Shown here piece by piece: positions 1-13,789 of a stretch of DNA of 13,789 nucleotides (its first letter is position 1; every line of letters begins with the position of its first letter). Both the position numbers and the translations under genes were made by a program. Origin of the DNA: a virus (lineage: Duplodnaviria; Heunggongvirae; Uroviricota; Caudoviricetes). The stretch is taken from positions 1 through 13,789 of the IMG/VR virus record IMGVR_UViG_2568526722_000003; one strand, given 5' to 3'. Below the pieces are notes generated by a model. The model was not told the origin of the DNA, ran no database searches, and worked only from the letters and a program-made list of their open reading frames with translations.

Positions 1-161
1 TTTAACCAGGCCGTAACGCATTTGCATGCTATTGATTAGCCCGGTTGGCCCTAAACGGCGTATACTCAGGTAACGAGATACATTATCAGCAGTAAGCGAA
101 GAAGGCAGACCGCGCGCCGAGATCTCGATAAAGTCAATGTTTCCGTACAGGCATAGCGTCC

Positions 162-557
162 TCACATTTCATAGGTAATGACATAAGTCAGATCGGCTGA
201 ACTCCACAGGCCCGCATCATCGTCGCGCCGGTAGTCATAGCCGCTGGCCACCATACTGGTGATCAAATCTGACAGTGCCGGGATATCGCTCATCACCGGA
301 TAAATCCGGGACTCCATCCACGCATCCAGCTCTGAATCCGGCACCTGAGCAGGCAGGAAAACTTCGATATGCAGCTCCGCCTGCCAGGTATCGCTGTCCA
401 GCTCTTCGCCCGTGTATTCAGCGCCGGTGAGATAAACGGCAACTGCCGGAAAATCCGCCTCATCAAAAACAGCGGGGCGACCATCAAAAAACGTCGCCCC
501 GGTGTCATGCTTCTCCAGTGCATCCAGTACGGCTGCACGGAGTTCAGTATGTTTCAT
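162..557 (-). CDS. U: Minor tail protein U (lambda gpU), 131 aa
   Basis: Translation MKHTELRAAVLDALEKHDTGATFFDGRPAVFDEADFPAVAVYLTGAEYTGEELDSD... matches lambda gpU over full length as recalled; ATG start; 4-nt overlap with Z stop. Confidence 0.93.
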   Translation of the reverse strand: MKHTELRAAVLDALEKHDTGATFFDGRPAVFDEADFPAVAVYLTGAEYTGEELDSDTWQAELHIEVFLPAQVPDSELDAWMESRIYPVMSDIPALSDLITSMVASGYDYRRDDDAGLWSSADLTYVITYEM

Positions 558-1132
558 CGCTTTATTACCATCCTCAGTTGATGCTGCAGCGCATAGCCCA
601 GCTCTTTCGGAAGACGTTCACGCCGTATCCGTTCAATATTCTGTTTAAACGCCGTGGTCAGCGGCACCGCCATCGGGATTTTCACCACATCAATGGGGTA
701 ACGGTTTTTCCCGGCCACACGCTGCATAACATGCCACCGGCCGTTTTTCAGTTGCTGAATAAACGCGCCGGGAATACGACGGTTACCCACCACAAGCACA
801 CTGCCGCCACCTTTCAGGGCTGAACGCTGCCCCTTTTTACGACGCCTGCGTCGGGACAGGACAACCCGCGCGTTACCCAGCTTTATTACGGGCAAATCCC
901 CCCGGTTAACCTTGATTCTGGCCTGCGGATTTTTGACCGTGGCCCTTTTCAGCCTGGCCCTTTCCTTTACCAGTTTCCGGCGTACCTTTGTCTCACGGGC
1001 AACCTGTACCACCGACTGCGATATCGCGGATGAAGCAACGCGGTTAATGGCCATTGCGGCGGCACCGGGCACCGCCGTTCTGCTGATACGGCTGAGGTTT
1101 TCAACGGCCTGCTCAAGACCTTTTATGGCCAT
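554..1132 (-). CDS. Z: Tail completion protein Z (lambda gpZ), 192 aa
   Basis: Translation MAIKGLEQAVENLSRISRTAVPGAAAMAINRV... matches lambda gpZ as recalled; ATG at 1130-1132; lambda order FI-FII-Z-U preserved. Confidence 0.93.
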   Translation of the reverse strand: MAIKGLEQAVENLSRISRTAVPGAAAMAINRVASSAISQSVVQVARETKVRRKLVKERARLKRATVKNPQARIKVNRGDLPVIKLGNARVVLSRRRRRKKGQRSALKGGGSVLVVGNRRIPGAFIQQLKNGRWHVMQRVAGKNRYPIDVVKIPMAVPLTTAFKQNIERIRRERLPKELGYALQHQLRMVIKR

Positions 1133-1143
1133 ACATCCCCCTT

Positions 1144-1497
1144 TCAGCGGCGACGGTTAACGGCAGGCGGTACGCCCCGCCCAAGCCAGAGATGACAGCT
1201 TCCGCCATCATCCGGCGAAATCCGGTCTATCCAGAAGTTTTCCTCACCGATGGTCAGCGTGTCGCCGCGCCGCAGCTGCCGCACATCATCAGTCCGGACA
1301 AACAGGGACGGGCTGGAGCCTTCAACGCGCACGCCCTGTCCGGCATAGCTGATATTTTCAGGGTCATCAAAAACACCACGTATCACAGCACCGGACTGCT
1401 CACCGGATGTCATGGTGGCTGACGTTCCCATGTACCCGCGTATCGTTTCATCGGCGCAGGCAATGGCAGCATCGAACAGGTTATCGAAATCAGCCAC
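1144..1497 (-). CDS. FII: Head-tail joining protein FII (lambda gpFII), 117 aa
   Basis: Translation (M)ADFDNLFDAAIACADETIRGYMGTSATMTSGEQSG... matches lambda gpFII as recalled; start codon here is GTG, preceded by GGGAGG 6 nt upstream. Confidence 0.92.
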   Translation of the reverse strand: MADFDNLFDAAIACADETIRGYMGTSATMTSGEQSGAVIRGVFDDPENISYAGQGVRVEGSSPSLFVRTDDVRQLRRGDTLTIGEENFWIDRISPDDGGSCHLWLGRGVPPAVNRRR

Positions 1498-1508
1498 AGC
1501 GCCTCCCG

Positions 1509-1907
1509 TTATTGCATTCTGGCCAGGCCGCGCTCTGTCATTTCGGCTGCCACACCGGCAGAGACACGAAACGCCGTTCCCGGCAGCACAAATGCCACAG
1601 GTTCATCCCGCGTGGCGTGAAGTGCATCAGTATGCAGCTTCACCAGTGCCACGACCGTGACCAGTTCAGACGTATCCAGAATCACGGTATCCGGCTGCGC
1701 TGATCCCACCTCATTTTCATGTCCGGTCAGCACATTTTCCCGGCTGAGAGGGGTGTCCTGACCGGCAGTTTCATCCGTGTCATCAAGCTCCTCTTCCAGC
1801 TCTGCCACACGGAGCGCCAGTTCTTCTTTCGTCCCCGTCAGGCTGACATCACGGTTCAGTTGTTCACCCAGCGAGCGGAGACGGGCAATCAGTTCATCTT
1901 TCGTCAT
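1509..1907 (-). CDS. FI: DNA-packaging/head assembly protein FI (lambda gpFI), 132 aa
   Basis: The track ORF (1509..1946) contains MTKDELIARLRSLGEQLNRDVSLTGTKEELALRVAELEEELDDTDE..., the lambda gpFI sequence as recalled; real start is the ATG at 1905-1907 with GGAGGA Shine-Dalgarno; the upstream 13 codons are read-through of intergenic sequence. Confidence 0.9.
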   Translation of the reverse strand: MTKDELIARLRSLGEQLNRDVSLTGTKEELALRVAELEEELDDTDETAGQDTPLSRENVLTGHENEVGSAQPDTVILDTSELVTVVALVKLHTDALHATRDEPVAFVLPGTAFRVSAGVAAEMTERGLARMQ

Positions 1908-1948
1908 GGACTCCTCCACAGAGAAACAATGGCCCCGAAGGGCCATGA

Positions 1949-2046
1949 TTACGCCAGTTGTACGGACACGAACTCATCAGGGTCAGCCAGCAGCATCAGC
2001 GGTGCTGACTGAATCATGGTGAACTCACGCGCCGGATCCGCCAGAT
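1949..2046 (-). pseudogene. E: C-terminal remnant of major capsid gene E (last ~24 codons ...FTMIQSAPLMLLADPDEFVSVQLA*)
   Basis: Minus-strand frame just upstream of FI encodes FTMIQSAPLMLLADPDEFVSVQLA-stop, recalled as the gpE C-terminus; homology stops upstream where sequence switches to Nu1. Confidence 0.5.
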
Positions 2047-2202
2047 TTCGGCATACCATTTTATGACGGCGGCAGAGTCATAAAGCACCTCATTACCCTT
2101 GCCACCGCCTCGCAGAACGGGCATTCCCTGTTCCTGCCAGTTCTGAATGGTACGGATACTCGCACCGAAAATGTCAGCCAGCTGCTTTTTGTTGACTTCC
2201 AT
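2014..2202 (-). pseudogene. nu1: Terminase small subunit Nu1, N-terminal 52 codons only, fused to foreign tail (IWRIRRVSSP*)
   Basis: MEVNKKQLADIFGASIRTIQNWQEQGMPVLRGGGKGNEVLYDSAAVIKWYAE matches lambda Nu1 residues 1-52 as recalled; the next 10 codons are not Nu1 and run into the gene E remnant; junction around 2040-2047. Confidence 0.85.
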
Positions 2203-2379
2203 TGTTCATTCCACGGCCAAAAACAGAGAAAGGAAACGACAAAGGCCCAAAAGCTCGTTTTCAGCACCTGTCGTTTCCTTTCTTTTCAGGGGGTATTTTA
2301 AATAAAAACATTAAGTTACGACGAAGAAGAACGGAAACACCTTAAACCGGAAAATTTTCATAAATAGCAAAAACCCGCG

Positions 2380-2391
2380 AGGTCGCCGCCC
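2380..2391 (-). other. cos: cos site: 12-nt lambda cohesive end GGGCGGCGACCT (cosN core), with cosB/Nu1 leader on one side and lambda right-end sequence on the other
   Basis: Minus strand reads ...CCGGCGATCCGACAGGTTACG|GGGCGGCGACCT|CGCGGGTTTTTGCTATTTATGAAAATTTTCCGGTTTAAGG..., matching the joined lambda right and left ends as recalled; lies about 180 nt upstream of the Nu1 start. Confidence 0.85.
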
Positions 2392-2590
2392 CGTAACCTG
2401 TCGGATCGCCGGAAAGGACCCGCAAAATGATAATAATTATCATCTGCATGTCACAACGTGCATCTACGCCATCAAACCACGTCAAATAATCAATTATGAC
2501 GCAGGTATCATATTAATTGATCTGCATCAACTTAACGTAAAAACAACTTCAGACAATACAAATCAGCGACACTGAATACGGGACAACCTC

Positions 2591-2824
2591 ATGTCAACGA
2601 AGAACAGAACCCGCAGAACAACAACCCGCAACATCCGCTTTCCTAACCAAATGATTGAACAAATTAACATCGCTCTTGATCAAAAAGGGTCTGGGAACTT
2701 CTCAGCCTGGGTCATTGAAGCCTGCCGCCGAAGACTGTGCTCAGAAAAAAGAGTTTCGCCTGAAGCAAACAAAGAAAAGAGTGACATTACTGAATTGCTC
2801 AGAAAGCAGGTCAGACCAGATTGA
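2591..2824 (+). CDS. Small ribbon-helix-helix-like DNA-binding protein (77 aa), possibly YlcI/DUF3950-like
   Basis: ATG ORF; basic N-terminal tail (KNRTRRTTTR), then predicted beta-strand NIRFP and two helices (NQMIEQINIALDQ / FSAWVIEACRRRL), typical RHH topology; AT-rich; the family name is from memory and unverified. Confidence 0.55.
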   Translation: MSTKNRTRRTTTRNIRFPNQMIEQINIALDQKGSGNFSAWVIEACRRRLCSEKRVSPEANKEKSDITELLRKQVRPD

Positions 2825-2881
2825 AGCAATTTAGATAATCGTGCAGACTAGGTACCCTCATATCACATGGAAGGTACTACA

Positions 2882-3292
2882 ATGGCTCAGGTTGCCATTT
2901 TTAAACAAATATTCGATAAAGTGCGAAATAATTTAAACTATCACTGGTTTTATTCTGAACTAAAACGTCACAATGTCTCACATTACATTTACTATTTAGC
3001 CACAGAGAATATTCATCTTGTTCTTGAAAACGATAATACGGTTTTAATAAAAGGACAGGGTAAGGTTGTAAATGTAAGATTTTCAAAAAATAAATGCCTT
3101 ATAGAAGCCACATTAAAAGGATTCAAATCAGGAGAGTTATCATTTTACGAATACAGGAAAAATCTTGCTACAGCAGGGGTTTTCAGATGGATTACAAATA
3201 TCCACGAAAACAAAAGGTATTACTATACCTTTGATAATTCATTACTCTTTACTGAGAACATTCAGAACACTACACAAATATTTCCGCACTAA
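2882..3292 (+). CDS. AT-rich hypothetical protein (~137 aa), possibly DUF1398/YbcV-like moron
   Basis: Uninterrupted ORF; ATG at 2882 has a GGAAGG Shine-Dalgarno 7 nt upstream (the track start at 2867 has none); strongly AT-rich codon usage unlike the flanking phage genes; the family assignment is a recollection. Confidence 0.55.
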
Positions 3293-3337
3293 ATCATAAC
3301 GTCCGGTTTCTTCCGTGCCAGAACCGGACTCGCTGGC

Positions 3338-3502
3338 ATGATGAAATATGTGTACCCGGTAACCCCGGTGTGCATCGTTTTTGATTATTCCCGCACACTC
3401 GCGCAGAAGGAGTTCCCCGTCGGGCTACGGTCTCTGTTAATACGGGAATACGGCGACGATACAGCGCATGATGTGTCAGGCTTGAATACCTTTATCCTTT
3501 AA
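3338..3502 (+). CDS. Possible small ORF, 54 aa (MMKYVYPVTPVCIVFDYSRTLAQKEFPVGLRSLLIREYGDDTAHDVSGLNTFIL)
   Basis: ATG-initiated ORF just under the 60-aa track cutoff; sits between a stem-loop (3301-3329) and hairpin element A; no clear Shine-Dalgarno. Confidence 0.2.
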   Translation: MMKYVYPVTPVCIVFDYSRTLAQKEFPVGLRSLLIREYGDDTAHDVSGLNTFIL

Positions 3503-3970
3503 AAGGGATATCAGTTAAGTTATCCCGTGTAGGGTATAAGCCATTATCAAAGCCACTCTGTAGGGAATGGCTTTTGTGATGGCATCACTTACTCTTTACG
3601 CTGCTATCCCACTCATCCCGGAATTTTGATGGGTTATTGAAACCTTCTGCTGACATAACAACTCCTTCAATGTTTGGCTGAAATTAGGATGTCTTTCCAT
3701 CAGTCCGCCACCACAAAGAATCTTTTTTGCCATAAGGCAGGAGGTTCATCTTTCAGTGGCTGCCGGTGTTATTTCCCCACTTACTGGCTTGGGTTGTTTC
3801 GTGGTACTGCCGTTAACTGGTGGCGCACAGATTTAGTTAAATCCGTTCTCGCCTGAACTATCTTTTACATACCCGGATTGTGGGGATGTAAATCACGGTT
3901 TCATTATCAAGCCCACCAGTAGATGGGCTTTGTAATGAAGAGTTGTTATGAAAATTGCTCTAAACAAGCA

Positions 3971-4459
3971 TTAATAGCCATCAGAAGTAATCGCTACAGA
4001 TTTCAATCCCTCAATGTCATCCTTGGACAGGGCGAACCATTCACCGTGCTTTCTCTTTGCGGCAAATTTGCGATGAAGCATGTTTTCAGTTTCTCTTCCA
4101 CCAGGGATCAGGCACTCAAGCTTCAAGCAGTCTGGTCCAGAGTTGCCAAGCGATTTGATGCGTTGTGGAATGTTGGATGAATACCCAATTTTGGTTAGCC
4201 CAGTTTTCTTCGATGACAAAACGTATACCTGAGGAGGTTCTTTTCTCTGGTCTTCCATTACACGTCTCATTGTTGCCATAAGTCCGCCGTGCATCAGCAT
4301 TTCAACAAAGAACGCTGACCGAACACCTGACGACTTAAGCATGCCAGAAAATTCACTTGCCAATTCCATTAACTCTGCGATGTTTTCAGGAACTTTTTGG
4401 CAGTTATCTTCCTTGTATAAGGAAATCATTCTTTGAAGCTTTTCTTCTAATTGGTTCAT
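3971..4459 (-). CDS. T5orf172 / GIY-YIG-like domain protein (~162 aa) with an unrecognised N-terminal region
   Basis: C-terminal half (VYVLSSKKTGLTKIGYSSNIPQRIKSLGNSGPDCLKLECLIPGGRETENMLHRKFAAKRKHGEWFALSKDDIEGL) fits the T5orf172/MUG113 pattern (YVYxL...KIG.T.N..RR...L...E..LH..F...R..GEWF); the track start at 4495 is GTG, the first ATG is at 4457-4459 (MNQLEEK...). Confidence 0.6.
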   Translation of the reverse strand: MNQLEEKLQRMISLYKEDNCQKVPENIAELMELASEFSGMLKSSGVRSAFFVEMLMHGGLMATMRRVMEDQRKEPPQVYVLSSKKTGLTKIGYSSNIPQRIKSLGNSGPDCLKLECLIPGGRETENMLHRKFAAKRKHGEWFALSKDDIEGLKSVAITSDGY

Positions 4460-4608
4460 AGCGTCTTTACCTTTTAGAAAGTGAGCCTGTCTCACAGAAA
4501 AGCCGCCCCGAGATGGTCGCCACCATATACGGCAGTTCTCAGGCTCAACTTTCTGAAAGGCTCGGGTGATGTAATATGCGCGTGAGATGCGCTGTGAAAT
4601 TCAGATGT

Positions 4609-4632
4609 AAAAAAAGCCCCGCATCGCGAGGC
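4609..4632 (-). terminator. Rho-independent terminator downstream of Rz/Rz1
   Basis: Minus strand GCCTCGCGATGCGGGGC (7-bp GC-rich stem with one G-U pair, 3-nt loop) followed by TTTTTTT, about 30 nt after the Rz stop. Confidence 0.6.
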
Positions 4633-4664
4633 TCATTAAATGGACTTTGTGATTTGCAAAAAAA

Positions 4665-5123
4665 TTATTTCAGGCATTGCGTCCTGATGTATTCCTGCAG
4701 GTAGTTAACCTGCGCGGTTATCTTGTCGATTCCACTTCGGAGACGGTAATAATTGAGTTCAGCATCTGCTGTAAGTCCTGGGCTTTCTCCATCGCCCATG
4801 CCGCTGGCTCCGGTCGTTGACTTTGCACAGGTGGCGGCGACTTGCAGGCGCTTACGCCCAGCAGAAACATCAGCACGGAGACTTTCGATAGTCGCGTTAG
4901 CATCAGCAAGCTCCTTTGTGTATCTTGCGTCGAGTTCTGCTACATCACGTTGACGCTTCCGCATGTCAGCGATGGTGGCGTTCGCCTTCTCCAGTTCACT
5001 GGCCTTGTTATCGCGCTGCTCTTTGTAGGCGATTGCGTTATCACGGTAATGATTAACAGCCCATGACAGGCAGACGATGATGCAGATACCCGGCACTACC
5101 TGCTGAGGTGCCATAGGCGACAC
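4665..5123 (-). CDS. Rz: Spanin inner-membrane subunit Rz (i-spanin), N-terminus chimeric
   Basis: From [19 protein letters not shown]...KELADA... onward resembles lambda Rz as recalled; the first ~12 codons (from a GTG start) are encoded within the holin stub in another frame. Confidence 0.7.
4718..4903 (-). CDS. Rz1: Spanin outer-membrane lipoprotein Rz1 (o-spanin), embedded in Rz in the +1 frame
   Basis: [36 protein letters not shown]...: signal peptide with lipobox (LGVSAC) followed by a proline-rich region, wholly inside Rz as in lambda Rz/Rz1; ATG at 4901-4903. Confidence 0.7.
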
Positions 5124-5151
5124 CCGTTGTTAACTTATCCATGGATTTCAT
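5059..5151 (-). pseudogene. Holin remnant: first ~22 codons of a phage-21/DLP12 EssD-type holin ([22 protein letters not shown]), then out-of-frame read into Rz and stop
   Basis: ATG at 5149-5151 with GAGGTG Shine-Dalgarno; N-terminus matches S21/EssD as recalled; after ~22 codons the sequence continues as Rz in another frame; no endolysin ORF lies between holin and Rz. Confidence 0.65.
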
Positions 5152-5260
5152 AACCCCACCTCGCAGACAAAGCGGGTGTAAATTGAGGGAATACTACGAA
5201 ACGTAACAGACTCGGAGTCAGTGAATAACTCAGGTATTGGGTTATCAGCTAATATCGAGA

Positions 5261-5296
5261 CTCAAAAAATGGAAAAACCCACTCGACGGCGGGTTT
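5261..5296 (-). terminator. Candidate intrinsic terminator on the late-operon strand upstream of the holin stub
   Basis: Minus strand AAACCC-gccgtcgagt-GGGTTT followed by TTCCATTTTTTGAG. Confidence 0.3.
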
Positions 5297-5724
5297 AAGC
5301 TGTGTGACGAAGTAACCACTCTTAACAGCATAACCAATTTTTTACGTACGTAAACCACTAAATGATATTTGCGAGAATGCTACCGAGTATTGAAAACACC
5401 ACTACAAATACATAAGCAAATCTCAACAAATAACCAACAAATAATTCCCAGTGTTATTTTTAGCCGATTTAAATTGAACCTTCAAATCATAGAGCACTTA
5501 TAAATAACAACCGTTAATATAAATTGGCTAATAGATTTATTTTTATTCAGCCAAGAGCCATGAATAGGATTCGATAGAAAAAAGTTCAGATAAAAATAGA
5601 GATCTACTTCACAAATCAAACGAGAAACCAAAACTTACATCTTGAAATAATCATATTGATTAGATGAATATTTATCGCGCAGTGACATCATTTTTTAATA
5701 ATAGTTCAAAAAAAAGGGCTCACG

Positions 5725-6822
5725 ATGAAAAAATTAACAGTGGCAATTTCTGCTGTAGCTGCATCAGTACTGATGGCGATGTCTGCTCAGGCAGCTGAAA
5801 TTTATAATAAAGACAGTAACAAGCTGGATCTGTACGGGAAAGTTAATGCTAAGCACTACTTCTCCTCTAATGATGCAGATGATGGTGATACTACTTATGC
5901 CCGTCTTGGCTTCAAAGGTGAAACCCAAATCAACGATCAACTGACTGGTTTCGGTCAGTGGGAATATGAATTCAAAGGCAACCGCGCTGAATCTCAAGGT
6001 TCCTCCAAAGATAAAACCCGTCTTGCCTTCGCTGGCCTGAAATTCGGTGACTACGGCTCCATCGATTACGGCCGTAACTACGGTGTAGCATACGACATCG
6101 GTGCGTGGACTGACGTTCTGCCAGAATTCGGTGGCGATACCTGGACCCAAACAGATGTGTTCATGACTGGTCGCACCACTGGTGTTGCAACCTATCGTAA
6201 CAACGACTTCTTTGGTCTGGTTGATGGTCTGAACTTTGCTGCTCAGTACCAAGGCAAAAACGATCGTAGCGATTTCGATAACTACACCGAAGGTAACGGT
6301 GATGGCTTCGGTTTCTCTGCTACCTATGAATACGAAGGATTCGGTATCGGTGCAACTTATGCGAAATCTGATCGTACCGACACTCAAGTTAATGCAGGGA
6401 AAGTTCTTCCTGAAGTATTTGCTTCCGGTAAAAATGCAGAAGTTTGGGCCGCAGGTCTGAAATATGACGCTAACAACATTTACCTGGCCACTACCTATTC
6501 TGAAACCCAGAATATGACTGTATTTGCTGATCACTTCGTTGCTAATAAAGCTCAAAACTTCGAAGCTGTTGCACAATATCAGTTCGATTTCGGTCTGCGT
6601 CCGTCCGTTGCTTACCTGCAATCTAAAGGTAAGGATCTTGGAGTATGGGGCGATCAGGACTTAGTCAAATATGTTGATGTAGGTGCAACCTATTACTTCA
6701 ACAAAAATATGTCTACTTTCGTTGATTACAAAATCAACCTGCTTGACAAAAATGACTTCACTAAAGCACTCGGTGTAAGCACTGATGACATCGTTGCTGT
6801 AGGTCTGGTTTACCAGTTCTAA
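5725..6822 (+). CDS. nmpC: OmpC-family outer-membrane porin (NmpC / phage Lc type), 365 aa, intact
   Basis: Signal peptide [23 protein letters not shown]|AEIYNKD, porin motifs and C-terminal ...VAVGLVYQF; full-length and uninterrupted; opposite orientation to Q and the lysis genes, as for DLP12 nmpC and PA-2 lc. Confidence 0.9.
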
Positions 6823-6830
6823 TCTGATTA

Positions 6831-6872
6831 CGAAAAAGATATGTTGCGGGAGGCTTTGCCTCCCCAACATAT
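6831..6872 (-). terminator. Candidate late terminator (tR'-like) downstream of Q on the minus strand
   Basis: Minus strand ATATGTTGGGGAGGC-aaag-GCCTCCCGCAACATAT (about 15-bp stem) followed by CTTTTTCG; about 140 nt downstream of the Q stop. Confidence 0.45.
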
Positions 6873-6960
6873 AAGTGGCTCCCTCAAGCCACTTCCTTTA
6901 GGAGCACAACCTTGCTTCTAACTATATAAACCTTCTGTTATATATTACCCTTTATTTTTG

Positions 6961-6990
6961 GGGGCGTTGCAACGCCCCATTTTTAATAAT
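6961..6990 (+). terminator. Rho-independent terminator for the porin gene; perfect 18-bp palindrome
   Basis: GGGGCGTTGCAACGCCCC followed by ATTTTTAATAATTTTT on the plus strand. Confidence 0.5.
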
Positions 6991-7011
6991 TTTTAGTAAA
7001 CAACTGGCATA

Positions 7012-7395
7012 TTAATTAGAGTTATTAACAACGATATCCATCTCTAACCGGATATCTAATGCCATTAACATCCCTTCAATTATGCCCTCAGCCTTCTGTA
7101 ACCTTTTCCCGATATAACCATCAGAGCAGCAATGCTTACCTGCCAGTGACATGAATGTCATACCGACTACATAATAATCTACTAATAAATCGTGCAAATC
7201 GCTGTTGTTCTTTTTCAGACGGGCCATGCACCCGCAAATAATCATCGCGTCATCGTCACAACATTGCGGGCGAGATTTTACTTTTGAAGTAATTAATCCC
7301 TTAAAACCGGCGGCAATGGACGACCAGGTCACATCTTCATGATTATTAGCCGCCCACGCTCCCCAACGCTCAAGAACCATCTGAATATCACGCAT
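7012..7395 (-). CDS. Q: Late-gene antiterminator Q, phage 21/82 (DLP12 QuuD) type, 127 aa
   Basis: [34 protein letters not shown]...[16 protein letters not shown]... matches DLP12-type Q as recalled; ATG at 7393-7395 (the track start at 7410 is TTG). Confidence 0.85.
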
Positions 7396-7480
7396 CAACT
7401 TACTCCACAAAAATCAGGCCAGAACGCCAATTACAAGCAAAAATCAACAAAACAGTATTAGTTGATTGTTATCTCTGACT

Positions 7481-7621
7481 TCATACTCCTGCTCCTGTCA
7501 GGGTTTTGGCGTAATTCTTCAGTATTCGGTAATCGGTCAAAACAGAACCGGGGGAACGATATAAGCGCAGACGCCCCCAGCGGTGGCGAAGAAGTTCTGC
7601 CATATTAAACTCAAACATCAT
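7481..7621 (-). CDS. ylcG: Small protein YlcG-like (46 aa)
   Basis: Hand-translated [49 protein letters not shown]; its ATG overlaps the rusA stop (ATGA); matches DLP12 YlcG as recalled; below the track size cutoff. Confidence 0.6.
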
Positions 7622-7980
7622 TCATTCCCCATTTCGGTGATGGTCAGTTCCAGCCTCCCACCTTTGGTAACAGGCATCTTCACAACGCGGTAATCAACGA
7701 CCTGAGCATCATCCAGCCAGAAACCTGCTTTAGTGAGTGCGTCAAAAGCGGCTTTTTGCAGATTATCCAGGTCACGGCGACGGCGATCCGGCATGTGGCA
7801 CTCAATGCGGATTTTCACAGGCATAGCCAGGCCGATATCCAGCATTGCGTTTTTAATGATTCGGGCGACGTTATCGCGGTATGCCTGCCCCTCTGCGCTG
7901 ACGTGCGTGCGCCCTCGATTATGGCGGTAGTAGCGGTTATTGCTCGGCGGCCAGGGTAGTGTGATGTGGTAAGTATTCAC
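7618..7980 (-). CDS. rusA: Holliday-junction resolvase RusA, 120 aa
   Basis: (M)[37 protein letters not shown]...[28 protein letters not shown]... matches RusA as recalled; GTG start overlapping the upstream stop (GTGA). Confidence 0.93.
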
Positions 7981-8066
7981 GCCTTAATTACCCCCTCTTT
8001 CAGCCAGATAACCTGCGTTCTCGCCATACCTTCCAGCGCGCATTCTTTTGCATATGCAGCATCGAC
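7977..8066 (-). pseudogene. ybcO: C-terminal remnant of a YbcO-like (DUF1364) gene, about 29 codons
   Basis: Frame ending ...[29 protein letters not shown] with the stop overlapping the rusA start; matches the YbcO C-terminus as recalled; further upstream the frame hits a stop and no N-terminal YbcO-like sequence appears in any frame. Confidence 0.4.
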
Positions 8067-8186
8067 TTGCTTGGCATGCCCTTTACCGGCAATCTTCTGT
8101 ATGCGCTAAACCTAGATAGAATCCACTCTGTGCACATTGAAGCCCGCTCTATGCTTCCTTTCAGGTATTGAAGGGATTGAGATGGG

Positions 8187-8534
8187 CTAAGCATTATTGG
8201 CCTCCTGCATCAGGAGAAAGACAATCATGGCGGCGCGGAGAGGTCTGGTATCAAATATTGGGCTTACGCCTTTTGCATCCACACACCATTCAGTTAACTG
8301 GTCTAAGATAGAAATCCTGTATTTCTCAATAATCGGCCATGAAGCGCTCGGATCATTGCAGTAGTCAGGCAAATGATTTAATGGCTCAAAAGTTGTATCA
8401 GCATTTCCGTAATACCATTTGTTGGTGTTATTCCCTGATGTTTCCGGTTTACTTGCCCAAAGGCCTTTAAAAATTATGTCTCCTACCATTCTGTTAATTT
8501 CAAAATCACTTAACTGTGAATAATCCATTGTCAT
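8187..8534 (-). CDS. Hypothetical nin-region protein (~115 aa)
   Basis: [92 protein letters not shown]...; ATG overlaps the ninE stop (ATGA); GAGGAA nearby; family not recognised. Confidence 0.5.
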
Positions 8535-8707
8535 TTCCTCGCACGATATCTTAGCCACCGGATATCCCACAGGTGAGCTGTGTAATTGAAGGTTTTTACG
8601 TCAGATTCTTTTGGGATTGGCTTGCGTTTATTTCTGGAGCGTTTCGTTGGAAGGTATTTGCAGTTTTCGCAGATGATGTCGGTGAAACTTCGTCGCTGTC
8701 GCCTCAT
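8531..8707 (-). CDS. ninE: NinE, 58 aa
   Basis: [58 protein letters not shown] matches lambda NinE as recalled; ATG overlaps the methyltransferase stop. Confidence 0.75.
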
Positions 8708-9231
8708 GCCGCCCTCCTGACGCCCTGCCCGAACGCCATCAATGCCGCTTTGGATACGGTAGTAAACATCCGTCGAGGACTGATGAACGGTCGCCAAATC
8801 AGCAGCATGGAGCCTTTGCTGTTTCCCTTCTTCTCCAGCCCTGTCGATGGTTCGATAAAATTAATCCGTCCATCAGTGATAATGCGAACTTCGTCGACAC
8901 TCTCCAGAGCCTTGCTGAACCATCCGACTGACATATCCTCTGGCACAAGCATAACTACCGTCTGTCGCTGTTGTATGCACTGCTCAGCGGCTTTTTCCAC
9001 CCACGGCCTGATATTGCTGTACGGTGGGTTATTCCAGATTGCACCGTGGCTTACCCACTCAGAATTGAGCGCGTCGTCGGCCTCAGTTAGCCAGTGAGCA
9101 CACAGAGCATTTTTGTCGCTCGCTGCCGAATCCAGCCAGAATCCAAACTCAATATCCAGTGCATCAAAAAGCCAAAGCGGCGTTTGCCAGCAGTCCTTGT
9201 CGTGTGCTGGCGTATTTGATTTGATAGTCAT
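8704..9231 (-). CDS. Phage Dam-like DNA N6-adenine methyltransferase (~175 aa)
   Basis: [50 protein letters not shown]...[16 protein letters not shown]...: NPPY catalytic motif and DxxA...WxTP pattern of the small phage N6-A methyltransferase family; ATG at 9229-9231 with GGGGAGA upstream; overlaps the ninB stop. Confidence 0.75.
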
Positions 9232-9737
9232 GCAGCTCGATCTCCCCATCTCGCTTTCCACTCCAGAGCCAGTCTCGCTTCGTCTGACCACTTAACGCCA
9301 CGCTCTGTACCGAATGCCTGTATAAGCTCTAATAGCTCCGCAAATTCGTTTACACGCATCCTGCTGGTTGACTGGCCTATTACCACAAAGCCATTCCCGG
9401 CAAGGTTAGGAACAACATCCTGCTGCTTTAATGCTGCGGTAAACACACACTTCCAGCTTTCTGCATCCAGCCAGCGACCATGCCATTCAACCTGACGAGA
9501 GACGTCACCAAGGCAAGCCCAAAGCTTTCGATTCTGGTCTAAGCTGCGGTTGCGTTCCTGAATGGTTACTACGATTGGTTTGGTTGGGTCTGGAAGAATT
9601 TGCTGTAACCGCCCTATTCTCTCGCTGAATCGCAAACCGAAATCACGAGTAGAAAGCGCACTGAATCCGATAGACCTTACGGTGCTGGCTGAATACCACG
9701 AACAGATTGAAAGCAACCTGCAACGTATTGAGCGCAA
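9228..9737 (-). CDS. ninB: Recombination protein NinB (Orf), C-terminal ~125 aa lambda-like, N-terminal ~44 codons atypical with no canonical start
   Basis: From QQILPDPTKPIVVTIQERNRSLDQNRKLWACLGDVSRQVEWHGRWLDAESWKCVFTAALKQQ... to the stop matches lambda NinB as recalled; the preceding 44 codons do not, and the track start is a TTG. Confidence 0.65.
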   Translation of the reverse strand: MRSIRCRLLSICSWYSASTVRSIGFSALSTRDFGLRFSERIGRLQQILPDPTKPIVVTIQERNRSLDQNRKLWACLGDVSRQVEWHGRWLDAESWKCVFTAALKQQDVVPNLAGNGFVVIGQSTSRMRVNEFAELLELIQAFGTERGVKWSDEARLALEWKARWGDRAA

Positions 9738-9839
9738 GAATCATCGAGTTTGGTATAGCAAGCCAAGTGAGTTCGGTATAACTTGTCAAGGAAGACAAAA
9801 GGTTAAAGGGAAATCCATTCCATTGGCATGAGGTACGTA

Positions 9840-10169
9840 ATGAAGAAAATTGATTACAAGTCCATACCAAAACCAATAGACTCAGCATCAGAGCGAAAAA
9901 AACACAAAAAAGAGGCTGAAAAATTAGCAAATTATATCAGTTTTATTAGAAACAATGCTCACGGCGATGGCGACAGGAAGTTGCTTTCAGATGCCCGGAC
10001 CCAAGCGTTCAGTATACTTCGTAAGCAGATGCAATATCGTCTTCATCCAGGCTACATAATTGAAATTCGCCCGACTGAAAGACAATTGTTCTTATTAAAC
10101 TCTGTCTTTGACTTTGTAAACGTAGTTGGAGATCTTATCGACAGGTCTGTAGATAAGGCTCCTGGGTGA
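9840..10169 (+). CDS. AT-rich hypothetical protein, 3' end cut by IS1 (stop supplied by the IS1 left end)
   Basis: ORF MKKIDYKSIPKPIDSASERKKHKKEAEKLANYISFIRNNAHGDGDRKLLSDARTQAFSILRKQMQYRLHPGYIIEIRPTERQLFLLNSVFDFVNVVGDLIDRSVDKAPG*; ATG at 9840 with GAGG 8 nt upstream; low GC; the last codons and stop (GG TGA) are IS1 sequence; no family recognised. Confidence 0.45.
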   Translation: MKKIDYKSIPKPIDSASERKKHKKEAEKLANYISFIRNNAHGDGDRKLLSDARTQAFSILRKQMQYRLHPGYIIEIRPTERQLFLLNSVFDFVNVVGDLIDRSVDKAPG

Positions 10170-10219
10170 TGCTGCCAACTTACTGATTTAGTGTATGATG
10201 GTGTTTTTGAGGTGCTCCA

Positions 10220-10495
10220 GTGGCTTCTGTTTCTATCAGCTGTCCCTCCTGTTCAGCTACTGACGGGGTGGTGCGTAACGGCAAAAGCACCGCCGGACAT
10301 CAGCGCTATCTCTGCTCTCACTGCCGTAAAACATGGCAACTGCAGTTCACTTACACCGCTTCTCAACCCGGTACGCACCAGAAAATCATTGATATGGCCA
10401 TGAATGGCGTTGGATGCCGGGCAACTGCCCGCATTATGGGCGTTGGCCTCAACACGATTTTACGTCACTTAAAAAACTCAGGCCGCAGTCGGTAA
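10220..10495 (+). CDS. insA: IS1 InsA (transposition inhibitor / transposase N-terminal part), 91 aa
   Basis: [43 protein letters not shown]... matches IS1 InsA. Confidence 0.95.
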
Positions 10496-10917
10496 CCTCG
10501 CGCATACAGCCGGGCAGTGACGTCATCGTCTGCGCGGAAATGGACGAACAGTGGGGCTATGTCGGGGCTAAATCGCGCCAGCGCTGGCTGTTTTACGCGT
10601 ATGACAGTCTCCGGAAGACGGTTGTTGCGCACGTATTCGGTGAGCGCACTATGGCGACGCTGGGGCGTCTTATGAGCCTGCTGTCACCCTTTGACGTGGT
10701 GATATGGATGACGGATGGCTGGCCGCTGTATGAATCCCGCCTGAAGGGAAAGCTGCACGTAATCAGCAAGCGATATACGCAGCGAATTGAGCGGCATAAC
10801 CTGAATCTGAGGCAGCACCTGGCACGGCTGGGACGGAAGTCGCTGTCGTTCTCAAAATCGGTGGAGCTGCATGACAAAGTCATCGGGCATTATCTGAACA
10901 TAAAACACTATCAATAA
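10414..10917 (+). CDS. insB: IS1 InsB' frame (transposase catalytic part, expressed as InsAB' by -1 frameshift)
   Basis: ...[72 protein letters not shown]... matches IS1 InsB. Confidence 0.93.
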
Positions 10918-11042
10918 GTTGGAGTCATTACCAGAAAGCAGGTCTTTCTCTCGTGTAGAGATAAGCGAGTCAGAGTTATGGGGTATATCAAATAATCCTG
11001 TAAACCACGCTCACCAACGAAATCCAAACAAAAAGTGGTCAT

Positions 11043-11067
11043 AACCCGCTCAGGCGGGTTTCATTTT
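11043..11067 (+). terminator. Candidate intrinsic terminator upstream of ea10 (possibly tL2-like)
   Basis: AACCCGC-tcag-GCGGGTT followed by TCATTTTCA. Confidence 0.4.
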
Positions 11068-11231
11068 CACGCAAACAAAAGAATAAACACTGCACTGTGT
11101 ATTCATTCCAACGAGTGAATACACGGAGCAATGTCGCTCGTAACTAAACAGGAGCCGACTTGTTCTGATTATTGGAAATCTTCTTTGACCTCTAATGTGA
11201 GGGCGATTTTTTTCTGTGAGGATATGAACAG

Positions 11232-11600
11232 ATGTCAAACATCAAAAAATACATCATTGATTACGACTGGAAAGCATCAATAGAAATTGAAATCGACCAT
11301 GACTTAATGACAGAGGAAAAACTTCACAAGATTAATAATTTCTGGTCAGACTCTGAATACCGACTCAATAAACACGGCTCTGTATTAAATGCTGTATTAA
11401 TCATGCTGGCGCAACATGCTCTGCTTATAGCAATTTCAAGCGACTTAAATGCATATGGTGTTGTGTGTGAGTTCGACTGGAATGATGGAAATGGTCAGGA
11501 AGGATGGCCTACAATGGATGGTAGCGAAGGAATAAGAATTACCGATATCGATACATCAGGAATATTTGATTCAGATGATATGACTATCAAAGCCGCCTGA
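11232..11600 (+). CDS. ea10: Ea10 (lambda early protein, ssDNA-binding), 122 aa
   Basis: MSNIKKYIIDYDWKASIEIEIDHDLMTEEKLHKINNFWSDSEYRLNKHG...; size and position immediately upstream of cIII match lambda ea10 as recalled. Confidence 0.75.
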   Translation: MSNIKKYIIDYDWKASIEIEIDHDLMTEEKLHKINNFWSDSEYRLNKHGSVLNAVLIMLAQHALLIAISSDLNAYGVVCEFDWNDGNGQEGWPTMDGSEGIRITDIDTSGIFDSDDMTIKAA

Positions 11601-11672
11601 GCGCGGCGTTACCGCATACCAATAACGCTTCACTCGAGGCGTTTTTCGTTATGTATAAATAAGGAGCACACC

Positions 11673-11837
11673 ATGCAATATGCCATTGCAGGGTGGCCTG
11701 TTGCTGGCTGCCCTTCCGAATCTTTACTTGAACGAATCACCCGTAAATTACGTGACGGATGGAAACGCCTTATCGACATACTTAATCAGCCAGGAGTCCC
11801 AAAAAATGGATCAAACACTTATGGCTATCCAGACTAA
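11673..11837 (+). CDS. cIII: CIII (FtsH/HflB protease inhibitor), 54 aa
   Basis: Hand-translated [54 protein letters not shown] matches lambda CIII; AAGGAG Shine-Dalgarno upstream; the track merged it with kil. Confidence 0.9.
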   Translation: MQYAIAGWPVAGCPSESLLERITRKLRDGWKRLIDILNQPGVPKNGSNTYGYPD

Positions 11838-11949
11838 ATTCACTATCGCCACTTTTATTGGCGATGAAAAGATGTTTCGTGAAGCCGTCGACGCTTATAA
11901 AAAATGTATATTAATGCTGAAACTGAGATCAAGCAAAAGCATTCACTAA
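11806..11949 (+). CDS. kil: Kil (host FtsZ/cell-division inhibitor), 47 aa
   Basis: [47 protein letters not shown] matches lambda Kil as recalled; overlaps the cIII 3' end as in lambda. Confidence 0.85.
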
Positions 11950-12024
11950 CCCCCTTTCCTGTTTTCCTAATCAGCCTGGCATTTCGCGGGCGCTATTTTC
12001 ACAGCCATTTTCAGGAGTTCAGCC

Positions 12025-12321
12025 ATGAACGCTTATTACATTCAGGATCGTCTTGAGGCTCAGAGCTGGGCGCGTCACTACCAGCAGATCGCCCGTGAAG
12101 AGAAAGAGGCAGAACTGGCAGACGACATGGAAAAAGGCCTGCCCCAGCACCTGTTTGAATCGCTATGCATCGATCATTTGCAACGCCACGGGGCCAGCAA
12201 AAAAGCCATTACCCGTGCGTTTGATGACGATGTTGAGTTTCAGGAGCGCATGGCAGAACACATCCGGTACATGGTTGAAACCATTGCTCACCACCAAGTT
12301 GATATTGATTCAGAGGTATAA
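12025..12321 (+). CDS. gam: Gam (RecBCD inhibitor), GamS form, 98 aa
   Basis: [98 protein letters not shown] matches lambda Gam. Confidence 0.93.
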
Positions 12322-12326
12322 AACGG

Positions 12327-13112
12327 ATGAGTACAGCACTCGCAACGCTGGCAGGGAAGCTGGCTGAACGTGTCGGCATGGATTCTGTCGACCCACAGGA
12401 ACTGATCACCACTCTTCGCCAGACGGCATTTAAAGGTGATGCCAGCGATGCGCAGTTCATCGCATTGTTGATCGTCGCCAACCAGTACGGCCTTAATCCG
12501 TGGACGAAAGAAATTTACGCCTTCCCTGATAAGCAGAACGGCATCGTTCCGGTGGTGGGCGTTGATGGCTGGTCCCGCATCATCAATGAAAACCAGCAGT
12601 TTGATGGCATGGACTTTGAGCAGGACAATGAATCCTGTACATGCCGGATTTACCGCAAGGACCGTAATCATCCGATCTGCGTTACCGAATGGATGGATGA
12701 ATGCCGCCGCGAACCATTCAAAACTCGCGAAGGCAGAGAAATCACGGGGCCGTGGCAGTCGCATCCCAAACGGATGTTACGGCATAAAGCCATGATTCAG
12801 TGTGCCCGTCTGGCCTTCGGATTTGCTGGTATCTATGACAAGGATGAAGCCGAGCGCATTGTCGAAAATACTGCATACACTGCAGAACGTCAGCCAGAAC
12901 GCGACATCACTCCGGTTAACGATGAAACCATGCAGGAGATTAACACTCTGCTGATCGCCCTGGATAAAACATGGGATGACGACTTATTGCCGCTCTGTTC
13001 CCAGATATTTCGCCGCGACATTCGCGCATCGTCAGAACTGACACAGGCCGAAGCAGTGAAAGCTCTTGGATTCCTGAAACAGAAAGCCACTGAGCAGAAG
13101 GTGGCAGCATGA
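12327..13112 (+). CDS. bet: Bet (Red-beta single-strand annealing recombinase), 261 aa
   Basis: Full-length match to lambda Bet ([44 protein letters not shown]...). Confidence 0.96.
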
Positions 13113-13789
13113 TACCGGACATTATCCTGCAGCGTACCGGGATCGACGTGAGAGCTGTCGAACAGGGGGATGATGCATGGCACAAATTACGGCTCGGCGT
13201 CATCACCGCTTCAGAAGTTCACAACGTGATAGCAAAGCCCCGCTCAGGAAAGAAGTGGCCTGACATGAAAATGTCCTACTTCCACACCCTGCTGGCTGAG
13301 GTTTGCACCGGTGTGGCTCCGGAAGTTAATGCTAAGGCGCTGGCCTGGGGAAAACAGTACGAGAACGACGCCAGAACCCTGTTTGAATTCACTTCCGGCG
13401 TGAATGTTACTGAATCCCCGATCATCTATCGCGACGAAAATATGCGCACTGCCTGCTCTCCCGATGGTTTATGCAGTGACGGCAACGGCCTTGAACTGAA
13501 ATGCCCGTTTACCTCCCGGGATTTCATGAAATTCCGGCTCGGTGGTTTCGAGGCAATAAAATCGGCTTACATGGCCCAGGTGCAGTACAGCATGTGGGTG
13601 ACGCGAAAAGATGCCTGGTACTTTGCCAACTATGACCCGCGCATGAAGCGTGAAGGCCTGCATTATGTCGTGATTGAGCGGAATGAAAAGTACATGGCGA
13701 GTTTTGACGAGATGGTGCCGGAGTTCATCGAAAAAATGGACGAGGCACTGGCTGAAATTGGTTTTGTATTTGGGGAGCAATGGCGATGA
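13109..13789 (+). CDS. exo: Exo (Red-alpha 5'-3' exonuclease), 226 aa
   Basis: Full-length match to lambda Exo ([40 protein letters not shown]...GFVFGEQWR*); ATGA overlap with bet; the stop codon is the last 3 nt of the window. Confidence 0.96.

Follow-up and report, generated by a model that had tools for sequence, protein, structure and literature searches.

The DNA analysed here is a stretch of 13,789 nucleotides, referred to below as the window and corresponding to positions 1 to 13,789 of the IMG/VR virus record IMGVR_UViG_2568526722_000003. It is a lambdoid prophage of Escherichia coli, and positions 3300-4100 are 100% identical in many E. coli chromosomes, for example that of strain 214-4. 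The minus strand carries a Q-type antiterminator gene, an Rz-like lysis gene and a gene of the T5orf172/GIY-YIG type, which together indicate that it is the sense strand of a Q-dependent late operon. Two related hairpins on this strand, termed A and B, are the subject of this report. Hairpin B lies 32 nt past the stop codon of the T5orf172/GIY-YIG-type gene, and hairpin A starts 2 nt past the stop codon of an unannotated open reading frame (ORF) of 23 codons. The 317-nt interval bracketed by the hairpins also contains an untranslated conserved core and a third, smaller hairpin, and a conserved flank follows hairpin A on its 3' side (Table 1).

Both hairpins fold as a stem, an internal loop and a second stem on either strand, with free energies of −19 to −24 kcal/mol and z-scores of −5.1 to −6.7, none of 200 shuffled sequences being equally stable. 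Covariance models derived from relatives of the window match exactly two sites in its 13.8 kb, both on the minus strand and with E values of ~1e-13 to 1e-15. The next-best match has E > 0.2, and the detection of the two sites is far beyond chance. An earlier, sequence-only reading of this DNA had proposed the two elements as a pair of paralogous hairpins, and they do exist, are structured and belong to one family. The sequences quoted for them are present at 3542-3581 (CATTATCAAAGCC...GTGATG, hairpin A) and at 3902-3937 (CATTATCAAGCCC...GTAATG, hairpin B), the starts being 360 nt apart (inverted repeats I1 and I2). Both sites lie where they had been placed, with best bounds a few bases tighter than those first given. 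The similar upstream context noted at the same time was not borne out by alignment with MAFFT, which finds no extended similarity outside the hairpins and only a short CCC...GGG motif.

The 3' flank of hairpin A runs on into the Shine-Dalgarno sequence and start codon of a DUF2560 gene in HK620, Sf6 and HK97. Homology of the window to these phages stops near position 3491, where a plus-strand moron is joined. Within the flank a weak GGGAUA/UAUCCC hairpin is followed by UUUU, but its fold is not significant (z −1.0).

Table 1. Coordinates of the hairpins and of other features in the window.
Feature	Position	Strand	Remarks
Hairpin A	3541..3582	−	Late-sense RNA CCAUCA-CA-AAAGCCAUUC-CCUACA-GAGUGGCUUU-GA-UAAUGG; model matches 51.9 and 48.4 bits
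Hairpin B	3901..3938	−	Late-sense RNA UCAUUA-CA-AAGCCCAUC-UACU-GGUGGGCUU-GA-UAAUGA; model matches 55.8 and 58.6 bits
Conserved 3' flank of hairpin A	3491..3540	−	Aligns to HK620, Sf6 and HK97
Unannotated 23-codon ORF	3585..3656	−	MSAEGFNNPSKFRDEWDSSVKSK, then stop; Shine-Dalgarno AAGGAG at 3662-3667, 5-nt spacer
Untranslated conserved core, 126 nt	3688..3813	−	Homologous to P22G nt 50-186
Third, smaller hairpin	3864..3892	−	UUUACAU...AUGUAAA; inverted repeat I10; −9.9 kcal/mol, z −2.3
T5orf172/MUG113 domain gene, upstream on the late strand	3971..4459	−	RefSeq: GIY-YIG nuclease family; Pfam
Canonical intrinsic terminator	4614-4634	−	GAGCCTCGC...GCGGGGCTT + TTTTTT; between the Rz-like and T5orf172 genes
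YlcI-like gene	2591-2824	+	Plus-strand accessory set
DUF1398 gene	2867-3292	+	Plus-strand accessory set
54-aa ORF	3338..3502	+	Last of the plus-strand accessory set converging on hairpin A
Rfam Lambda_thermo (cIII thermoregulator)	11660-11718	+	88.5 bits; places the far end of the window among pL-side early genes

A covarying hairpin family between lysis and packaging genes

About 230 related loci were gathered, comprising 124 core-anchored loci from IMG/VR, 9 from species genomes and about 100 more reached through the small ORF. The 9 loci were all that a core-pattern scan of genome contigs returned; they are mostly enterobacterial phage DNA in metagenome-assembled genomes and add little diversity. 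The search for further copies in relatives placed the hairpins in a family of P22-, HK97- and lambda-like phages and prophages. The segment 3491-3940 recurs at 94-99% identity in HK620, Sf6, HK544, IME10, HK106, HK97, P22, L and BTP1 as well as in prophages, and its homologues always lie between lysis/accessory and packaging genes and are almost never annotated. The usual order on the late strand is an upstream gene, hairpin B, a variable linker, the 126-nt core, a third version of the hairpin (A', the commonest type), a 60-nt leader and a DUF2560 gene (hkbM/orf80). In the window, HK544 and Emek a 95-nt insert with the 23-codon ORF follows the core and type A stands in place of A', while Sf6 has gene 66 at the position of the insert, followed by a type A hairpin. 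Other versions occur in other settings: in L024 types D and E stand on either side of an HNH homing-endonuclease ORF, itself upstream of the holin gene, types F and G are found just upstream of divergent DUF2560 genes, and the copy in a Proteus phage follows directly after its DUF2560 gene (L237 39467-39769).

At least eight inner-stem sequences, including those of P22, HK97, HK620, Sf6, L and the Proteus phage, keep one design. Read on the late strand, all versions have a basal stem of the form (Y)YAUUA/UAAUGR, followed by a 2×2 internal loop (CA/GA in the family, CA/AU in type E), an inner stem of 7-10 bp and an apex that usually reads CAUUY-loop-GRGUG with a conserved U-G pair. The sequence of the inner stem is wholly different between types (AAAGCCA, GAGRCCA, AAGCCCA, AAGCGUC, GGAUGCA, GAGCAUC, GAAGCUC and CAGCUCA). 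In an alignment of 25 sequences, 97.2% of the cells assigned to stems are paired and 10 of the 16 pairs have changed on both sides. The covariation score was reached by none of 500 shuffles, and slid registers are only 34-53% paired. The eight distinct inner stems are a stronger argument for a maintained fold than these cell counts. Comparison of the window with Rfam 15 at the gathering threshold returned only Lambda_thermo, and at E ≤ 10 the region 3250-4050 gave chance matches only (mir-458 at 22 bits and Proteo-phage-1 at 20 bits). The hairpin family is thus absent from Rfam and, apart from the listing of the P22 RNA P22G discussed below, no description of it was found in the literature searched.

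The strand on which the fold is kept can be read from the imperfect pairs. In the unbiased core-anchored sample, the non-Watson-Crick cells are 77 G-U pairs and 20 mismatches on the minus strand, and the same cells read on the plus strand are 12 G-U pairs and 85 mismatches. About 10-12 separate inner-stem sites carry G-U on the minus strand, and the reverse is not seen apart from one recombinant. Thus the hairpin B variants TAGGC and TGAGC give a U-G pair on the minus strand only, and in the phage L copy three pairs are of this kind, which would leave hardly any fold on the plus strand. The late-strand fold is the more stable one in 75 of 83 variants (mean −17.6 versus −12.6 kcal/mol), and its stability stays within a narrow range across types, whereas that of the plus strand extends from −1.6 to −17 kcal/mol. 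The strand-specific G-U pairs and the stabilities indicate that the fold is maintained on the late-sense (minus) strand rather than on the plus strand, on which the sequence-only reading had taken the hairpins, and RNA would be the simplest form for such a fold to take.

The position of the hairpins is also constrained. In 32 of 85 distinct contexts exactly 2 nt separate a stop codon from the AUUACA that follows it, and the stops over all contexts comprise 27 TAG, 34 TGA and 16 TAA, so that TAG appears over-represented at hairpin-adjacent stops. By eye, at least seven unrelated upstream genes end in TAG here, as if the element brings its own TAG. Complete genomes contain one or two copies, always between lysis and packaging genes (for example HK106 and the Proteus phage Brookers), and across ~2 Mb of related loci the model matches are confined to the late operon. 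A DUF2560-family ORF lies at most 150 nt downstream of 129 of the 154 A/A' hairpins. Direct reading puts the start codon of the DUF2560 gene 15-65 nt downstream of hairpins of types A', F and G, so that these lie in the leader of the packaging gene block, and type A is likewise found upstream of the DUF2560 gene. The linkage to DUF2560 (hkbM/orf80) holds even for highly divergent genes, the hairpin being upstream in E. coli and Salmonella phages and downstream in the Proteus phage. Two annotated genes that overlap the hairpins were rejected as apparent annotation artefacts. P22 orf25 (L127 1319-1396) starts in the loop of A', and the N-terminal 42 residues of orf118 of phage L and ST64T (L126 801-1157) are read through the core and the hairpin, the DUF2560 domain beginning at residue 43.

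Sequences diverge exactly at the edges of the hairpins in many combinations, with at least six contexts on the late-strand 5' side of B and at least five on the late-strand 3' side of A/A'. Hybrid hairpins are found as well, namely an A'/A hybrid in L114 and B/A hybrids in L181 and L186, in which everything between the paralogues, the core included, has been deleted. The hybrids pair imperfectly, as products of recombination would. The divergence at the edges and the hybrids indicate that the hairpins act as joints between cassettes and that the interval from B to A can be lost as a unit. Recombination at these conserved blocks is therefore documented, as a side effect or a second role of the hairpins. 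In L024 hairpins at 5006-5043 and 5627-5664, with different inner stems, flank the ORF at 5093-5611 (NUMOD4, HNH_3 and helix-turn-helix domains), and a further copy of the family at L054 8752-8789 was found alongside this case. A link between the hairpins and endonuclease cassettes (HNH, or the T5orf172/GIY-YIG type that adjoins B in the window) is possible.

The interval between the hairpins and the P22G RNA

The sequence-only reading had suggested that the interval could encode a small RNA or a small protein, and it offers a candidate for each in the 126-nt core and the 23-codon ORF. Of 5426 complete E. coli genomes, 1123 contain the core at 94-99% identity, as do 163 phage records; no feature is annotated for it, the sole overlaps being neighbouring or over-extended ORF calls. 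Among the ORFs assessed (45 and 21 aa on the minus strand, hydrophobic ones of 19-26 aa on the plus strand) none qualifies as a conserved reading frame, indels in a T-run and a C-run and a frameshift in P22 breaking the frames and the start contexts being poor. Folding of the core gives no significant structure (z −0.5 and −0.7) and it has no match in Rfam. Between P22 and HK620 the core has diverged by 5.3%, roughly half the 12.3% seen at the third positions of codons in the neighbouring gene, and this comparison offers weak evidence of constraint.

The 23-codon ORF has full-length homologues of 23-27 aa in phages of E. coli, Proteus and Enterobacter, as found by tblastn and with a degenerate DNA pattern. 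These include the E. coli P22-like homologues (MATQGFDNPSKFRDEWDKQAEGK, 69 loci), and the small ORF is found directly upstream of three types of small terminase. Changes within its GF[DN]NPSKFRDEWD core are synonymous. Searches of Pfam, PHROG and NCBIfam assigned it to no family. The ORF is preceded by a strong Shine-Dalgarno sequence. It is a probable micro-protein gene and, next to terminase genes, would add a candidate micro-protein to very well-studied genomes. The third, smaller hairpin, between B and the core, occurs in some module variants only and is absent from those with shorter linkers. A perfect 11-nt inverted repeat connects the start region of the small ORF (3654-3664) with the sequence just 5' of hairpin B (3940-3950). 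Pairing of the two halves to mask the small-ORF start was considered as a conserved feature and rejected, the halves occurring together in only 9 loci compared with 16 and 42 singly, and the repeat is probably incidental.

Sequencing of small RNA from P22-infected Salmonella assigned 99.8% of phage reads to ten P22 loci (Naaz et al. 2026, PMC13397905). One of these, P22G, is a late-strand RNA of 204 nt, listed with unknown function and found at 374 reads per million (RPM) in the cytosol and 488 RPM in vesicles, that spans the end of rha and the whole core and has its called 3' end in the 5' arm of hairpin A' (PMC13397905). P22G nt 50-186 are 92.7% identical to window positions 3822-3688, and the core is located at about 40177-40307 in P22 (NC_002371.2). 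P22G and the window interval thus share locus and strand, and the called 3' end of the RNA lies in an A'-type hairpin. The published account differs from the present one in that P22G is listed as a small non-coding RNA (sncRNA) and the hairpin family is not described (PMC13397905). P22 has neither hairpin B nor the 23-codon ORF at this locus. Accumulation of an RNA upstream of a stem-loop is what would be expected of a 3' protective or processing hairpin.

Proposed role of the hairpins and alternatives

We propose, at a probability of roughly 55%, that the hairpins are RNA stem-loops of the late transcript that punctuate the late mRNA by protecting or processing RNA ends and that double as recombination joints. 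The structure, strand, conservation, position and recombinants of the hairpins are observed, and from these we infer the stability or processing role and the kind of factor involved. A and B would be transcribed on the sense strand of the late operon, in the untranslated stretch between the lysis/accessory and the DNA-packaging genes, and each hairpin would form at once when the ribosome leaves the upstream stop codon. Lacking a U-tract, it would let transcription pass through unterminated and, as a 3' (and 5') protective or processing stem-loop, it would set the ends of stable RNA segments; the pair in the window would bracket one such segment, made up of the core and the 23-codon gene. A nuclease or binding protein would recognise the AUUA-CA/GA-UAAU base and the CAUUY...GRGUG apex; our best guess is an enzyme of the RNase III type, which would act at the conserved internal loop. 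In the DNA itself, the 40-nt blocks together with the 126-nt core would serve as identity islands between unrelated cassettes, and homologous recombination may then swap, insert or delete cassettes there. A role as protein or RNA recognition sites, also raised in the sequence-only reading, is plausible since the elements are related, structured and conserved.

The hairpins belong with the known intercistronic stem-loops of phage mRNA and with module-boundary sequences. The RNase III hairpins of T7 early and late mRNA (R0.3, R1.1) and lambda sib are intercistronic, consist of stem, internal loop and stem without a U-tract, and leave a protective end on the upstream segment. The present family is like them in layout, with a constant design and a variable sequence, and shows the arrangement of an R-site: immediately past stop codons, the late strand has 6-7 bp, a 2×2 CA/GA loop and 9-10 bp. 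It differs from them in being unrelated in sequence, in having a shorter helix (6 + 10 bp) and in occurring as one or two copies at one locus, and its cleavage is conjectural. Repetitive extragenic palindromic (REP) sequences, imperfect palindromes of ~35-40 nt, and the short, stable hairpins of T4 are intergenic in operons and stabilize upstream mRNA. Compared with these and with bacterial interspersed mosaic elements (BIMEs) the family has another consensus, is not dispersed in the host chromosome or clustered, and is found at one phage locus; compared by eye, its sequence shows no resemblance to the REP consensus. The boundary or linker sequences of lambdoid phages (the module hypothesis of Susskind and Botstein; Clark et al. 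2001 for HK620; 'bsq' in Sf6) resemble the hairpins in being short conserved blocks at module junctions. The annotated bsq features, however, sit elsewhere, for example inside Rz, and the hairpins differ from them by their structure and their compensatory and strand-specific variation.

Several observations weigh against the role proposed above. Many of the aligned sequences are closely related, and the cell counts overstate the number of independent events. The tolerance of G-T by strand would fit a hairpin of single-stranded DNA as well. The helix of ~16-17 bp plus the 2×2 loop, or ~18-19 bp-equivalents, is short or borderline for a classical RNase III substrate. P22G comes without validation by Northern blot or reverse-transcription PCR (RT-PCR), its ends derive from the coverage by small-RNA reads, and the 3' end as called is in the 5' arm of the hairpin and not at the 3' base (PMC13397905). 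The hairpins are also optional, P22 lacking B and scans of lambda and DLP12 with the covariance model finding no copy, so that any function is accessory. Compared with the strain 214-4 locus (L001), the window lacks 6.7 kb at 2042-2046 (major capsid to small terminase) and 0.68 kb at 5083-5088 (lysozyme and part of the holin) and is near-identical over the rest; the prophage is therefore defective and the hairpins may be a relic in the window. Effects of the hairpins on stability, processing and expression are themselves inferred.

A related but more tentative possibility is that a dedicated factor, one that binds or cleaves RNA, uses the hairpins as operators and so exerts post-transcriptional control of the packaging block, that is, of the DUF2560 gene, the 23-codon ORF and the small and large terminase genes. 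Candidates for the factor are the DUF2560 product, the 23-residue peptide and a host enzyme recruited by the invariant base and apex. If so, the late operons of P22 and HK97 would contain an unrecognised regulatory layer, of which a P22G-like RNA would be a stable product.

The sequence-only reading had likened the hairpins to weak intrinsic terminators, and in one form of this idea they would be weak, possibly bidirectional terminators that act on the plus strand to end accessory-gene transcripts opposed to the late operon. Hairpin A does lie 39 nt past the plus-strand 54-aa ORF, just downstream of the plus-strand gene set, the plus-strand folds of A and B are stable in the window, and on that strand UUUUGUGA follows A and UUUGUAAU follows B. 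The hairpins nevertheless lack the U run (about 5 or more in 8 nt) that comes immediately after the G+C-rich stem-loop of an intrinsic terminator. GAUAAUG comes after the stems in the late-strand reading, in the plus-strand reading U4 follows A only, and neither strand has a U-tract in A' or in types D to G; as most types lack one they are unlikely to be intrinsic terminators. A promoter and terminator scan called neither A nor B, yet it found the canonical terminator at 4614-4634. The fold is kept on the minus strand, and on the plus strand variants show A-C mismatches, some being almost without a fold (down to −1.6 kcal/mol). In HK620 and Sf6 the hairpins occur without a nearby plus-strand gene, and some type A copies directly follow a canonical late-strand terminator. 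In P22 the antisense pid transcript of 476 nt ends at its own canonical terminator, which precedes A', so that antisense transcription stops before reaching the hairpin (PMC8835761). Termination is therefore a quite unlikely function. It is improbable, too, that the interval is an independent gene for a trans-acting small RNA (sRNA) of the P22G type, with its own promoter and with the hairpins as structural or terminator modules. This possibility is suggested by the place of P22G, which covers the core, among the ten loci to which nearly all P22 small-RNA reads map, both in infected cells and in vesicles (PMC13397905), and by the reduced divergence of the core. However, the scan of both strands found no sigma-70-like promoter in 3330-4700, and the start of P22G falls within the rha coding region, as expected of a fragment processed from late mRNA. 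No U-rich 3' end is present, and the core lacks significant structure and an Rfam match. The portion of the BTP1 lysogen RNA-seq table of non-coding RNAs that was examined has no entry at the hairpin locus (PMC7067206), which, as far as that portion goes, agrees better with an origin in the lytic late transcript than with an sRNA expressed in the lysogen. The known prophage sRNAs AgvB, AsxR, EcOnc, Pas, STnc6030 and IsrK were considered and map to other loci (the Q-holin interval or the tailspike gene).

The observed recombination raises the question of whether the hairpins are purely DNA-level linkers, or 'boundary sequences', whose hairpin character is incidental. The splitting of flanks at hairpin edges, the hybrids and the deletions between paralogues all agree with this view, as does a core that is long enough for homologous exchange and has neither fold nor ORF, and the lambdoid boundary pattern of a block with unrelated flanks and exchange is indeed found. 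DNA identity alone does not explain the data, however. A linker needs identity and not pairing, yet the inner stems differ with full compensation, and the tolerated non-Watson-Crick pairs are strand-specific, which points to selection on a single-stranded fold; moreover, the HK620 and Sf6 records annotate boundary sequences elsewhere and none at the hairpins. We consider this explanation unlikely. The single-stranded fold could instead be one of DNA, either as a priming or recombination signal, for example on the strand displaced in rolling-circle replication, or as the ends of a mobile element (IS200/IS605-derived, or resembling a miniature inverted-repeat transposable element, MITE), the latter recalling the earlier suggestion that the hairpins are the ends of a small inserted element. 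The G-T tolerance by strand, the two subterminal hairpins that bracket a unit losable as a whole and the homing-endonuclease-type genes (HNH, T5orf172/GIY-YIG) that adjoin several copies would fit such a scheme. The B/A hybrids with the whole interval deleted bear out part of the suggestion, but no discrete mobile element was found and the copies are at one late-operon locus, one or two per genome and never dispersed. No transposase adjoins them, so that they do not qualify as a hairpin-ended element of the IS200/IS605, palindrome-associated transposable element (PATE) or MITE type. Their orientation and spacing follow late-strand translation stops, which a single-stranded DNA signal would not need, and the imperfect hybrids look like recombination products rather than empty sites. 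A single-stranded DNA signal or mobile-element end is accordingly improbable.

Lambdoid late operons are usually treated as one transcript of 20-25 kb whose genes are tuned mainly by translation. A conserved, covarying family of hairpins found where lysis genes meet packaging genes in P22, HK97, HK620, Sf6, L and many prophages, with a companion core that about a fifth of complete E. coli genomes carry, points to post-transcriptional punctuation of such transcripts. The family provides a mechanistic handle on the newly reported P22G RNA, and it gives the 'linker' idea of modular phage evolution a concrete, mutable case with natural recombinants. The covariance model can be used directly for annotating hairpin sites.

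Neighbouring features and motifs

Resemblances to Fur, IHF and DnaA boxes and to −10 hexamers were also considered by eye and do not fit. The 54-aa ORF of the plus-strand set belongs to no family in a Pfam search; it is unannotated by RefSeq in the identical 214-4 locus and appears as a hypothetical protein in phage Chlobot. The terminator site at 4614-4634 is annotated as a terminator in HK106 too.

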